A stretch of DNA of 64,000 nt. Source: Candidatus Latescibacterota bacterium. Its GTDB lineage: Bacteria; Latescibacterota; UBA2968; GCA-2709665. The position numbers were made by a program, and so were the translations under genes. The stretch spans positions 434,256 to 498,255 of the forward strand of contig CAXXXF010000016.1 of NCBI GenBank assembly GCA_963667175.2, written 5' to 3'. Below the pieces are notes generated by a model. The model was given only the letters and a program-made list of their open reading frames with translations, did no database searches and had not been told where the DNA came from. Shown piece after piece: positions 13,282 through 17,584 of this stretch. Positions within the stretch are counted from its first letter, which is position 1; each line of letters opens with the position of its first letter.

Positions 13282-14253
13282 ATGACCATGACGGACAAGA
13301 AGAGAATCTATCTGGATTTCGAGCGCCCCATTGCCGAACTGGATGAGAAGATCGAGGACCTGAAGAACCGCGCCGAGACCGAAGAGCTCGACATGACTGC
13401 CGAGTTGACCACTCTGGAAAAACGGCTGCAGAAACTGGAAAAGGAAGTCTACTCGGACATGAGCCGGTGGCAGATATACCAGGTGGCGGGGCACCCCCAG
13501 CGCCCCCATACGCTGGATTTCATACGATTGATGCTCACCGATTTTACGGAGCTTCGCGGCGACCGGACCTTCAAAGACGATCCCGCTCTTGTGAGCGGCT
13601 TCGCCCGGCTGGAAGGACAACCCCTCCTGGTCCTTGGAACGCAGAAAGGACGCAATACAAAGGAAAATATCCTCAGGAACTTTGGCATGGCCCACCCCGA
13701 AGGATATCGAAAGGCGCTTCGCGTCATGAAACTCGCCGCCAAATTCAAACGCCCCGTCCTGTGTCTGATCGATACGCCCGGCGCCTACCCGGGCATCGGA
13801 TCAGAGGAACGGAGCGTTTCGGAAGCCATCGCCAGGAATCTCTTCGAGATTTCCAGGCTTCCGGTTCCAATCATCGTCGTCATCATCGGCGAGGGCGCAA
13901 GCGGCGGCGCGCTGGGAATCGGGGTCGGCGACAGAATCCTGATGCTGGAAAACGCGTGGTACTCCGTGATCAACCCTCAGTCCTGTTCTCTCATTCTCTG
14001 GCGGAATCGCGACAAGAGAGAAGAAGCGGCCGAAGCACTGAAGATCACCGCGCCCGACCTGGTTCCCCTCGGAATCGTCGACAGAATCGTACCCGAGCCA
14101 TTCGGCGGGGCGCACAGAGACGCCGTTACGGCGGCCGGGAACCTGAAGCGGATTCTGCTGGACGAACTTCAGCATCTCCAGGGCATGCGCCCCGACGAAC
14201 TCGTGCGCGAGCGGGTGGACAAGTTCGGTCGCATGGGGGTCTGGGATGAATGA
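13282..14253 (+). CDS. accA: Acetyl-CoA carboxylase carboxyltransferase alpha subunit
   Basis: [42 protein letters not shown]. Confidence 0.96.
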
Positions 14254-14314
14254 CCCGCACCTGCGGCGGTCCCACCGGATCCATGTCGTCTCCATGCAAC
14301 GAAATTAGCAAAAA

Positions 14315-14342
14315 ATGGGCCAGTGATTGCCCGTTTTTTTTT
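14315..14342 (+). terminator. Intrinsic terminator after accA (possibly bidirectional)
   Basis: ATGGGC-cagtgatt-GCCCGT stem followed by a T run and preceded by an A run. Confidence 0.7.
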
Positions 14343-14555
14343 ACGCTTGACGCCTTTCAGCGCCGGGACATTTCTAACTTGCTGTTTACGTGAGACGTTT
14401 CTAAAGTTGAGCGAATTTCTGGACCATTTTTCGGGAAGAATGGCCCGAGGATACCTTCCGCACTGCGAAAAAAAAGTCAGTACGTCCAGCCAGTTGTGTT
14501 TCAATATCTTATGCGAACGTCACAAACTCGGTCTCTCATTTTCTCAAATTACCCC

Positions 14556-14584
14556 TTGACGGAAAGGGGCTCGGATTATATATT
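14556..14584 (+). promoter_or_regulatory. Sigma70-type promoter with no downstream CDS
   Basis: TTGACG (14556-14561), 17-nt spacer, TATATT (14579-14584). Confidence 0.6.
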
Positions 14585-14590
14585 CTCAAT

Positions 14591-15034
14591 CGTTCTTGCG
14601 AAGAGACCGTCTTCTCATAAGACGTTGCCTTGGAACAAGTTACATTGCAGAATCCGTGTGTTTTTTCCGGCAGACGCTCCTGGGAAATCGCGACCGGATT
14701 TCAGACGCAACCGGGGGTTTTCTGCGGTTTGTTTTGATGTTGGGCCCGGACCGACAGGATCAAGACAGACGGTCCCGGGAGTTGGACATCGCAGAAGCCT
14801 CGTCTTCCAGGCAGGTATTGCTATAATGGGCGGTATGGCCGTTACCGTAATTCGCTTCGGCACCTGATCCAGCCCGGGGGAAGTTGAAAGCATCGGCTCT
14901 TTGGTTGGCGGCAGTCTTATTGGGGGAGATAATACTGCCAGCTAGACCGATCACGCAGAACTGCTGCTTTTCTTCCTATGCATCGTGACTCTGTGCCGAA
15001 CCCGCGTTCCAGTACGTCCAGCCGCCCATTTTTT
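14591..15034 (+). ncRNA. Candidate large structured ncRNA (3' half rod-like, 6S-like architecture possible)
   Basis: Nested complementary segments found by eye, e.g. AATGGGCGG/CCGCCCATT, TTCGGCAC/GTGCCGAA, GGCAGT/ACTGCC, TGCCTTGGAA/TTCCAGGCA; G-U pairs favour the + strand; upstream promoter; ends in a T run. Confidence 0.5.
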
Positions 15035-15039
15035 CGCCG

Positions 15040-17403
15040 TCAGCGCCCTTCCAGCCATCCCCGTGCGTCTATCCCCTCCTCGTCGATCCGGATTTCCACC
15101 GCACCCATCATATCGGTCCGATAGACCGAGGTCCCCATTGTCTCAAAACGCCGAATGACCTCGGGAGAGGGATGGCGAAATTTGTTCCTGATTCCGCACG
15201 AGACCGCTGCAAGCTCCGGACGCACGCCGTTCAGAAAAGCGGCGGTGGACGAGGTGCGGGATCCGTGGTGGGCCACCTTCAACACCTGGGCGTGAAGTCG
15301 GTCGCCCCACCGCAACAGATCCGAATCGGTCTCATGTTCGACGTCGCCCGTTAAAAGGACGGCGGATCCACCGTACGTCAGCCGGATGACGACGGAACCG
15401 TTGTTGAGTCCCATCGGGGCCGGTCCTTTTTTCGAAACATAATCCGGTGTGGGGTGCAGAACAAGGGCGTCCACGCCGCCCAGTCCGGCGAGCCGGTCGC
15501 CCGCCTCGACTGCGGCATAACGGATATCCTTCTCCCGGATCAGCGTCCGGATCCGCCGCGCCGTCCAGGAGTCGTAATGTTGTCCGGCATCCAGGTACCA
15601 TCCGACCTCTATCCTCTCCAGTAGCGTCACGAACCCGCCGATGTGATCGCTGTGCGGGTGGGATGCCACCACCACGTCGATGCGGCTGATTCCTTCCGCC
15701 TTCAGAAACGGGATCAGCACCCGTTCTCCCATATCGACGTTCACCGCGCGCAGACCGCCGTCAACCAGCATGGTCCTCCCGTTCGGAAACCTCAGAAAGA
15801 TCCCGTCGCCCTGCCCCACGTCCAGTACCAGCAACCGCAGGCCGGCGCCTCGCGGCCAGAGGTCCGACCAGACCCAGAGATTCGCCAGAGACAGCGCGAC
15901 GATCACAATCCGGCGGCCCCAACGCTGCGACCTGGCTTCGGGATGGATGAGAAGGACCGCGCAGAGATACAACCCCACGGTCGTCCAACCGGGTCGCGGT
16001 ATTTCCACGGCGGCCCATGCCGGTCCGGCGAACCATCCTGCCGTCTGGATAGCACCCGTCAGGACAAGCCAGTTTGCGCCGTTCAACAACGCAGCGACCG
16101 GCGGCGAAGCGTGAAAGACAATCACGCCGAGCAGCCCCAGCGCGACGGCAGCCGCCATTAAGGGCACCACGACGAGGTTGGCGAGAACCGAGACAACCGA
16201 GAGAAACCCGAAATAGGTCAGCACGAAAGGCAGCGTGCCCACCTGCGCGGCCACCGATACGGCCAGCGGCGACCATACCCAGTGCGTGAGACCGCCCGTG
16301 CCGCCTCCCGGGAGCCAGGCCCGGATTGGTCGATAGAGCAGCAGGATTCCTCCAGTGGCGGAAAAAGAGAGTTGGAATCCCACGTCGAACAGATCCTGGG
16401 GCCTGAAGACCAGAATCACAAGAGCCGCCAGACCGAGTGAATTCAATCCTTCCCCCTGCGTGTTTCCCAGGCGACCCCAGATGGTAATCGCGCACATCAT
16501 AGAGGCTCTCACCACCGAAGGCGGCAACCCCGTAACCAGCGCGTAGAGCGAAACCCCGCAGACGGTTGCCCATGCCGTGGTTCTCCTGCCGCATCCGAGC
16601 GCGCCGAGGCCGAAAAACAAGACCGCGGCAATCAGACCTACGTGCAGGCCCGAAACGGCCAGGACGTGGTTGACGCCGGCCCGCGTAAACGCGGTTCGAA
16701 CGCCGTCGGGCACCCCGCGTTTCTCTCCCAGCAATACCCCGTTCAGCAGGCCCGCCGGCCCTCCCGAGAGGTTGTTCGCCACGCCGCGGCGCACGCCACG
16801 GCGCACGGGCAGCACCACGTACGTCCACAGCCAGCCCCCCCTGCCCGCACGGGTGTCCAGGACCTGTTCCGCCCTGAACACCGACCCCATAACGTGGATT
16901 CCCTTCCGTTTCAGAAAGGCGCGGTAATCGAACGCGCCCGGATTTCTGGCCGGGTGCGGCCGCCGCAGGTTGAGCCGCGTCACCAGACGGTCTCCGTAAT
17001 CCACCTGCGGCCGGAACTTCCAAAACCGTACAAGAACCGCTCCCTGAATCGAAAACACGGTATCACGTACGGTCACGCTCTCCGCGGCGAGCCGAAGTCG
17101 CAGCCCGTCTTCAATCCATTCAGGTTCTTCAGCGACGCGCCCATGGAGCACCACCGGATGGTCCCGACCCGCAAACCGTGCGACGTGGTCATCGGGCAAC
17201 CCCTGTGTAACGCATTCATACCTCAAGGCCCCCAGAGCGACAAAGAGGGCCACCGGCCACACGGAACGCCTCCAACGGATCAGGGACACGATCCAGAACG
17301 CGAGACCACCGGCCCATAGCATCCATACCGGCAGCTCCCACGGATGAGCCAGGAGCACGCCCGCGGCGAAAGACGCCGCGGACAACAACGCCGGACGATG
17401 CAT
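15040..17403 (-). CDS. comEC: DNA internalization competence protein ComEC/Rec2
   Basis: RNPGAFDY, HVLAVSGLHVG, DVGFQLSF, metallo-beta-lactamase domain DVGQGD, SHPHSDHIGG, KVAHHGS; start at MHRP after GGAGGGA. Confidence 0.95.
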   Translation of the reverse strand: MHRPALLSAASFAAGVLLAHPWELPVWMLWAGGLAFWIVSLIRWRRSVWPVALFVALGALRYECVTQGLPDDHVARFAGRDHPVVLHGRVAEEPEWIEDGLRLRLAAESVTVRDTVFSIQGAVLVRFWKFRPQVDYGDRLVTRLNLRRPHPARNPGAFDYRAFLKRKGIHVMGSVFRAEQVLDTRAGRGGWLWTYVVLPVRRGVRRGVANNLSGGPAGLLNGVLLGEKRGVPDGVRTAFTRAGVNHVLAVSGLHVGLIAAVLFFGLGALGCGRRTTAWATVCGVSLYALVTGLPPSVVRASMMCAITIWGRLGNTQGEGLNSLGLAALVILVFRPQDLFDVGFQLSFSATGGILLLYRPIRAWLPGGGTGGLTHWVWSPLAVSVAAQVGTLPFVLTYFGFLSVVSVLANLVVVPLMAAAVALGLLGVIVFHASPPVAALLNGANWLVLTGAIQTAGWFAGPAWAAVEIPRPGWTTVGLYLCAVLLIHPEARSQRWGRRIVIVALSLANLWVWSDLWPRGAGLRLLVLDVGQGDGIFLRFPNGRTMLVDGGLRAVNVDMGERVLIPFLKAEGISRIDVVVASHPHSDHIGGFVTLLERIEVGWYLDAGQHYDSWTARRIRTLIREKDIRYAAVEAGDRLAGLGGVDALVLHPTPDYVSKKGPAPMGLNNGSVVIRLTYGGSAVLLTGDVEHETDSDLLRWGDRLHAQVLKVAHHGSRTSSTAAFLNGVRPELAAVSCGIRNKFRHPSPEVIRRFETMGTSVYRTDMMGAVEIRIDEEGIDARGWLEGR

Positions 17404-17584
17404 CACCGCTCCCTCCGTTTGGCCCCGGGTTCGCGACACAATGCGGCAAATTTCGTGCCGCTCCGAATAACGGCGGATTTTCCGGGTTTCCCGTTGTTGT
17501 CTGGAACGATCCTTTCAATCGATGTCTCGAAACGTTCACCCGCGTGTTATGACTCCGGCCACTCGACGCCGCCGGAACAATCCA

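Follow-up and report, generated by a model that had tools for sequence, protein, structure and literature searches.

A stand-alone gene for a rod-shaped structured RNA of an undescribed family in Latescibacterota

In a 64,000-nucleotide stretch of the genome of a Candidatus Latescibacterota bacterium (the window; contig CAXXXF010000016.1), the genes accA and comEC converge on a 786-base spacer that contains no credible gene. We find that positions 14556–15034, within this spacer, are a stand-alone gene for a structured non-coding RNA of an undescribed family. The gene has its own near-consensus sigma-70-type promoter, a U-run end and, as its conserved functional core, a rod of about 210 nt and roughly 70 base pairs that is unbranched in consensus (Table 1). 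The original prediction, made by a model from the letters alone, had named the same two neighbours, with which Pfam agrees, and its quoted helix arms were all found in place by a string check. It left the choice between a divergent 6S RNA and a new RNA class; the second option is supported by the lack of any Rfam match, by strong covariation, by the occurrence of one copy per genome across an order and by contigs from RNA sequencing runs.

Table 1 Features of the accA–comEC interval (positions in the window)
Feature	Position	Strand	Basis and remarks
accA (acetyl-CoA carboxylase carboxyltransferase alpha)	13282–14253	+	Pfam PF03255, E 2.7e-138; upstream neighbour, outside the RNA
End of accA unit: A-run, short GGGC/GCCC hairpin, T9	14310–14343	+	Alignment; kept in the window's genus, g3 and g4
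Distal conserved block, CTAACTTGCTGTTTACGTG	14368–14392		About 190 nt upstream of the −35 box; 94% mean column identity, 15 genomes
Proximal conserved block holding GTTTCAATATCTTAT (also given as GTTTCAAnnnnTTA)	14482–14516		About 45–75 nt upstream of the −35 box; 94% column identity
Promoter	14556–14584	+	−35 TTGACG 14556–14561, 17-nt spacer, −10 TATATT 14579–14584 within TATATATT
Predicted transcript, about 445 nt	14590–15034	+	The −10 box gives the inferred start, the T run the inferred end
5′-terminal hairpin, CUUGC...GCAAG around AAGAGAC/GUUGYCUU helix	14595–14639	+	Conserved in the genus
Variable 5′ region; local hairpins such as AACCGGGGG...CGGUU (14709–14731)	14640–14821	+	Unconserved beyond the genus
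Conserved rod, family core, closing stem AAUGGGCGG/CCGCCCAUU	14825–15030	+	Shuffles, covariation, covariance models
Central internal loop, 5′ strand GCCCGG	14872–14877	+	Most genera have CCNGG or CCGG as core; g8 and g9 lack this strand
Apical loop GGGGGA within UUAUU-GGGGGA-GAUAA	14922–14927	+	Invariant columns
Central internal loop, 3′ strand UAUGCAUC	14977–14984	+	Consensus GAUGCAUC, variants GGUGCACC and GGUGCAUC; self-complementary 8-mer, predicted mostly unpaired
T6 run, presumed 3′ end	15029–15034	+	Follows the closing stem without a gap; the comEC stop on the opposite strand is 5 nt away
comEC	15040–17439	−	Pfam Competence, DUF4131, Lactamase_B; convergent neighbour, outside the RNA

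The structural evidence lies in the rod. The segment 14822–15036 folds to −82.0 kcal/mol (z −3.22), and none of 200 shuffles does as well; z is −4.15 for the rod in genus g6 and −4.68 in family f4 (we number families f and genera g). The comparison with shuffled controls sustains only this 3′ part of the structure that had been predicted, as neither the full 447-nt RNA (z −1.25; 12 of 100 shuffles as good) nor the 5′ domain alone (z −0.73; 46 of 200) folds better than its shuffles. Covariation across relatives, proposed with the original prediction as a check, is strong. An independent MAFFT alignment of 19 sequences from four genera shows compensatory changes in 24 of 57 consensus pairs, and across 24 diverse relatives both sides have changed in 46 of the 57, with 86.3% of cells paired compared with 36–50% when the partners are slid and with 0 of 500 shuffles reaching any of five measures. 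The 24-sequence alignment was fitted to a covariance model, which favours structure; the MAFFT alignment points in the same direction. Many pairs of the rod are G-U, or alternate between G-C, G-U and A-U, on the plus strand, as had been noticed from the window alone. Within the genus of the window (g1), column identity is 86–100% in the rod compared with 42–53% in the adjacent end of comEC.

Rod length ranges from 180 to 218 nt among 49 sequences. The elements found family-wide are a closing stem GGGYGG/CCRCCC, an apical GGGGGAG hairpin, an A-rich bulge on the 3′ strand and a central internal loop, and GGGGGAGAU at the apical loop is unchanged in every family member seen.

A BLAST search with the spacer, which is alignable in all 14 other genomes of the genus (72–88% identity), found nothing in 26 genomes outside it. 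BLAST was too insensitive for this RNA, because synteny and covariance models later located it in genomes beyond the genus. In other genera of the family, the conserved blocks downstream of accA are likewise followed by a TTGACT-17-TATATT promoter, a stretch that varies, a rod whose apical loop is identical, and a U run. Of 53 genomes in the order, a first covariance model (R1, from the 19 sequences) detects the rod in 49 and a second (R2, from 24 diverse members) in 51: 20 of 22 in family f1, which includes the window, and 31 of 31 in family f2, both misses falling in genus g5. Each genome has one copy in sense orientation, with the sole exception of G048, which has two, at C1:34474–34684 and 5919674–5919884, one lying about 34 kb and the other about 16 kb from an end of its single 5.94-Mb contig; the second copy may come from overlapping ends of a circular assembly.

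Beyond the order, R1 gave no match in 102 other genomes of our sample of the phylum and R2 none in the 79 genomes from the two further families that make up the class (f3 and f4); with laxer filters, R2 returned only a chance match of 15.9 bits in five selected genomes. Gene order led to a divergent copy in one f4 genome, in an accA–RNA–comEC arrangement with a TTGACT-17-TATATT promoter, a rod of about 180 nt (the one with z −4.68) and the apical loop GUUGGGGGAGAC; its score of only 24 bits appears solely in an unfiltered search of this one locus. Searching public genomes for the apical motif gave 16 records, titled Candidatus Latescibacterota (12), Gemmatimonadota (3) and 'uncultured bacterium' (1). 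As far as the models see, the family appears to be confined to one order and at least one genome of a neighbouring family.

The conserved promoter, the T run or terminator, the contigs described below and the changing neighbours together indicate an independent transcription unit. The promoter agrees with the consensus at 10 of 12 positions. A scan that recovered it found three promoter-like sites in 14100–15300, compared with 0.4 ± 0.7 in shuffles, and 41 of 49 genomes have the pattern TTGAC[G/T]-N15-TATATATT in the 600 nt that precede the rod; the TTGACG-17-TATATT promoter of the original prediction is thus both recovered and conserved. A second start proposed at an extended −10 (TGcTATAAT, 14819) failed in the alignment, being present in only 2 of 15 members of the genus. 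The T6 ending is where it had been predicted. The 3′ end takes two forms, a direct U run in the genus of the window and in g3, and a separate GC hairpin with a U run in f2, g2 and g4; most genera have a separate canonical terminator 3′ of the rod.

Two blocks upstream of the promoter are conserved as strongly as the RNA (94% column identity), which suggests regulated rather than constitutive expression. The distal block, CTAACTTGCTGTTTACGTG, has the counterpart ACTAACCTrTTGT in other genera and is a candidate regulator site. The proximal block resembles a site for IHF (consensus WATCAANNNNTTR), and CTTAAGTTTCAAGA is found upstream of the promoter in most of the 41 promoter-matched loci, in both families, along with an A/T tract. 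An exact 14-nt direct repeat, CAGTACGTCCAGCC, places one copy in the upstream block (14478–14491) and the other in the 3′ strand of the closing stem of the rod (15010–15023); other species of the genus keep it just loosely.

The genes around the RNA vary while the RNA persists: it stands beside comEC without accA in g2, and with accA and a response regulator gene in g3 and g4. In the g2 genome G015, the RNA adjoins comEC about 143 kb from accA, such that the linkage of accA and the RNA has been broken at least once; at L017 of this genome (2620–2875), accA is followed by a gene that resembles ribosomal protein S20, as judged by eye.

This arrangement bears on whether the element acts in cis, as an oversized bidirectional terminator, as a 3′ untranslated region of accA or comEC, or as a palindrome at the DNA level. 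The position between convergent genes, with a T run 5 nt from the comEC stop, would suit such a role; the minus strand of the rod also folds well, if somewhat less well than the plus strand (z −2.66), and an exact 11-nt inverted repeat, AAAAAATGGGC/GCCCATTTTTT, brackets the entire spacer (14310–14320 and 15024–15034). However, the element has a conserved promoter of its own, which precedes the rod by 270 nt here and by 64–526 nt in other genera. Sense far outscores antisense (231 and 32 bits with R1 in the window; at least 89.8 and at most 37.5 bits across genomes with R2), and many G-U pairs would be C-A on the opposite strand. Either neighbour is replaceable, most genera have the separate terminator after the rod, the contigs from RNA runs stop short of both genes, and accA is followed by a hairpin and T9 of its own, which lie 250 nt ahead of the RNA promoter. 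This accA terminator had itself been predicted; the hairpin and T9 are conserved, but the hairpin has only 4 bp (GGGC/GCCC) and a simple terminator scan gave no hit. We consider a cis-acting element very improbable. A plain intrinsic terminator was ruled out by the stem of about 70 pairs, the conserved promoter and the separate terminator in most genera.

Five RNA runs contain a small share of the sequence words of the window; we examined four, from two studies, each of which contributed one contig of a relative, 82–95% alike to the window. Three contigs place along most of the transcript (442 nt on 14578–15020, 410 nt on 14602–15011 and 433 nt on 14603–15032), and the fourth, of 301 nt, on 14825–15024 with 101 unlike letters upstream. 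None extends into accA or comEC, and 14200–14577 and 15033–15200 are uncovered. In place of the variable segment 14669–14816, the contigs of relatives have 147–151 unlike letters. The RNA seems to be expressed in marine and sponge metatranscriptomes, and the contigs, which are consistent with a discrete RNA of about 440 nt with leader and rod, hint that such an RNA exists.

The leader itself differs from what had been proposed. The predicted long-range helix that would close the 5′ domain, TGCCTTGGAA/TTCCAGGCA, fails: 71% of cells pair, a shift by one column still leaves 60% paired, and among 500 shuffles 166 do as well. It competes with the 5′-terminal hairpin at 14595–14639, in which 91.9% of cells are paired (a value reached by 0 of 500 shuffles) and both sides have changed in 7 of 14 pairs. 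The consensus fold of the variable region downstream is poor (−22 kcal/mol). From the −10 box to the rod, the distance across genera is 64–526 nt: 64–70 nt in most of g6, 232–238 nt in the genus of the window, 304–349 nt in g3, g10 and g11, 394 nt in g4 and 526 nt in one g2 genome. The region between promoter and rod is a lineage-specific extension, in length and in sequence. The large RNA of about 440 nt that was originally proposed holds as a new class, but its conserved part is only the rod of about 210 nt.

A protein-coding role finds little room in this sequence. As the original prediction held, there is no credible coding sequence: none of the open reading frames (ORFs) persists through all 15 members of the genus, and the best shared stop occurs in 10 of 15, with differing starts. 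One could still take the locus for a structured mRNA whose product, read from a TTG at 14884, would be a short hydrophobic peptide like those of type I toxins, because an ORF beginning LKASALWLAAVLLGEIILPA... and coding for 24 to 78 amino acids is open in 8 of the 15 (14884–14988 in the window). It is absent or startless in the other seven, for example through a 1-nt deletion in G010 and G014, its nucleotides are invariant at all three codon positions, and other genera show compensatory changes of pairs. The ORF seems to arise incidentally from the invariance of the RNA sequence, and we give a peptide hardly any credence.

No known family accounts for the RNA. Searched at gathering thresholds, the whole window has no match in Rfam, OLE, ROOL, GOLLD, raiA and other ornate RNAs included. 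At E ≤ 10, the sole hit in 14250–15100 is to narK, which falls on the accA terminator by chance (E 4.8), and ten diverse relatives give only weak, terminator-driven matches to leaders and small RNAs; the Rfam comparison suggested with the original prediction therefore leaves both the window and these relatives without a family. OLE, ROOL and GOLLD are likewise orphan and highly structured, and a self-complementary exposed element here could mediate homo-oligomers, but those RNAs have multi-domain folds, whereas this one is a simple unbranched rod without an Rfam match. Sponges of the CsrB/RsmZ type share repeated G-rich motifs containing GGA, one of them in a hairpin loop, but are strings of short hairpins rather than one long rod with two to four motifs. 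A CsrA sponge was rejected, as PF02599 has no match at E ≤ 0.01 in the assembly of the window (G000, a 95% complete genome). Divergent RNase P RNA, signal recognition particle (SRP) RNA and transfer-messenger RNA (tmRNA) were ruled out as well, all three being found elsewhere in the genome of the window above their cut-offs (293.9, 68.5 and 198.1 bits).

The closest outlines are those of 6S RNA and Ms1. The RNA could be the 6S or an Ms1-like RNA of this lineage, with the rod mimicking promoter DNA for RNA polymerase and the loop around GAUGCAUC serving as the 'central bubble'. Like 6S (SsrS, RF00013), an unbranched rod of about 160–200 nt, it is a rod of about 200 nt with a closing stem, a terminal stem-loop and an interruption about 50 nt from each end, present in single copy under its own strong promoter; in the genus of the window, the loop region is loosely paired over 14–16 nt. 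RF00013 also finds no 6S in the genome of the window: although RNase P, SRP and tmRNA are found, the best RF00013 score is 14.2 bits, at a different locus, and none of 151 genomes of the phylum exceeds the curated cut-off of 46.4 bits. Ms1 of Actinobacteria, a rod of about 300 nt with a central bubble and terminal hairpins that binds the polymerase core and is unlike 6S in sequence, is a precedent, and was discovered through synteny and structure, as sequence searches fail (PMC9130861, in the portion used here). As that portion describes it, Ms1 is longer than 6S, rod-like with extra hairpins and restricted to a single lineage, and its length and shape are compatible with the RNA described here; it belongs to another phylum, has no sequence link and keeps a central bubble, to which nothing here is comparable.

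The bubble is where the resemblance to 6S fails. RF00013 matches neither the RNA (14250–15100) nor the ten diverse relatives, even at E ≤ 10. Aligned to a probable true 6S RNA of a different family in the phylum, the Rfam 6S consensus shows a bubble measuring about 16 × 13 nt. The central loop is 6 × 8 nt in the consensus structure for the window; in minimum-energy folds of 49 members it measures, wherever it can be made out, at most 8 × 8 in g6, 2–3 × 7–8 in g2 and g4, and a one-sided 0–1 × 10–11 in g8 and g9; the rod of the f4 homologue has no sizeable internal loop, and in two folds a larger loop lies elsewhere than the centre (10 × 9 in G043, 7 × 7 in G002). The bubble of 15/16 nt in the original prediction appears in the window only if weak GA/UC and CCA/UGG pairs are ignored, and in several other genera most of it is a helix of 6–11 bp. 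Open-promoter mimicry is unlikely because the 5′ strand opposite the 8-mer, which would need to be open as a template for product RNA, is short or absent in several genera and is not single-stranded in g2, g4, g8 and g9. Further differences from 6S are the variable 5′ extension of about 60–520 nt, the lack of a model match, and two elements foreign to 6S, the invariant apical loop GGGGGAG and GAUGCAUC. Family f3 has neither this RNA nor an Rfam 6S match, so the two do not cleanly replace each other. Accordingly, the 6S option of the original prediction is not supported, and we regard a 6S-like or Ms1-like role as unlikely.

Two other families of the phylum, f9 and f12, contain RNAs of about 178 nt (L087–L092) with their own promoters of the TTGCAT-17-TAAATT type that score 22.7–43.2 bits on the Rfam 6S model. 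They look like genuine 6S RNAs missed by the curated threshold. As kin of the rod they were rejected: the loci are unrelated and have nothing visible in common.

The 3′ strand of the central loop raises a different prospect. Correctly picked 8-mers have a predicted mean unpaired probability of 0.32–0.98, and in the 24-sequence alignment 95.8% of cells are self-complementary, compared with 26–56% when slid. Pair 2/7 is AU in 15, GC in 5 and GU in 4 of these sequences and is never unpaired; extraction with a regular expression, which returned no 8-mer for two of the 49 sequences and mis-picked a neighbouring 8-mer in G044, gives A-U 29, G-U 5 and G-C 13 in 47, again with none unpaired. As the inner UGCA is unable to pair within one loop, pairing between molecules is an attractive reading. 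RNA copies might then join through the GAUGCAUC loop into a dimer or a higher-order particle, as do the ornate bacterial RNAs GOLLD, ROOL and OLE, which are natural RNA-only homo-oligomers (PMC12286853, in the portion used here). The outer pair 1/8 is non-complementary in g1 (U-C, C-C or A-C, 16 sequences), and a protein site would explain the data too. We consider such an assembly rather doubtful. We hold to the same low degree a broader version, in which the rod is the protomer of a new RNA-only or RNA–protein assembly that brings helices of about 70 bp into a dimer or lattice via GAUGCAUC and, without being 6S, fills the niche of an 'abundant rod RNA' in one order of the Latescibacterota; the apical GGGGGAG loops would then be free to capture a partner, for example the 3′ end of 16S rRNA.

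That last partner has also been considered for the apical loop by itself, as a mimic of the Shine–Dalgarno sequence in which GGGGGAGAU would pair with the 3′ end of 16S rRNA and hold or tune 30S subunits. In the genome of the window, this end reads GGAUCACCUCCUUUCU; set against AUCACCUCC, GGGGGAGAU could form pairs at 8 of 9 positions, one of them G-U, and the remaining position is an A-A mismatch. No family member departs from the motif, and GGGGGA-like motifs also occur at 14712–14717 and 14877–14882. The pairing was judged by eye without a statistical control, however, the last three bases of the motif lie within the apical stem, no conserved start codon or ORF follows the loop, and G-rich loops bind many things. 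We consider this function quite improbable. The assembly of the window has two 16S rRNA genes (L108 at C7:187256–188815 and L109 at C3:561802–563301; 1575 and 1502 bits) that are unlike near their 3′ ends and beyond, and given an estimated contamination of 4.75% one of them may come from another organism.

We hypothesize instead that the rod acts in trans as a rigid scaffold on which a conserved partner would meet two invariant unpaired elements, GGGGGAG in the apical loop and the 8-mer GAUGCAUC in the internal loop, and that it does not act as an open-promoter mimic of the 6S type. We rate this reading at slightly better than even. The partner would most likely be a protein, bound or titrated by the rod, and two RNA copies may pair through the 8-mer, given that its self-complementarity is kept through a compensatory change from A-U to G-C. 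The RNA is probably a protein-binding scaffold and possibly self-associating.

Several points weigh against the scaffold reading, those on the 8-mer also against the assembly of copies. The expression data are assembled contigs of relatives, from which strand, ends and level are not readable and for which there is no DNA-run control. R2 does not detect the family in 76 genomes of the sister family f3, where syntenic sites downstream of accA (four genomes) and of comEC (five) have other genes and no rod; this absence means that the RNA is not a universal housekeeping RNA. For the 8-mer, the switch from A-U to G-C is confined to g6 and so represents few independent events, a 2-bp mini-stem closing a UGCA loop would fit the data equally, and the palindromy of the 5′ loop strand (CCNGG core) is within that of shuffles, reached in 8–96% of trials.

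We know of no cultured, genetically tractable member of the Latescibacterota. Searches of literature full text, supplements aside, turned up no paper on non-coding RNAs of this phylum: they returned nothing with both 'Latescibacter' and '6S RNA', and among papers with 'Latescibacter' and 'Rfam', by titles and the beginnings of abstracts, none on this subject.

The constraint on this RNA is at about the level of a housekeeping RNA, with about 100 nt near-invariant in the genus where neighbouring protein-coding ends are about 45–50% identical. Large orphan RNAs of bacteria are few, and this one extends their list by a new family with good support. With regard to the apparent lack of 6S RNA in this lineage, shape alone is no ground for filling the gap with the rod. 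The two short invariant elements make binding and dimerization testable in vitro without culture.

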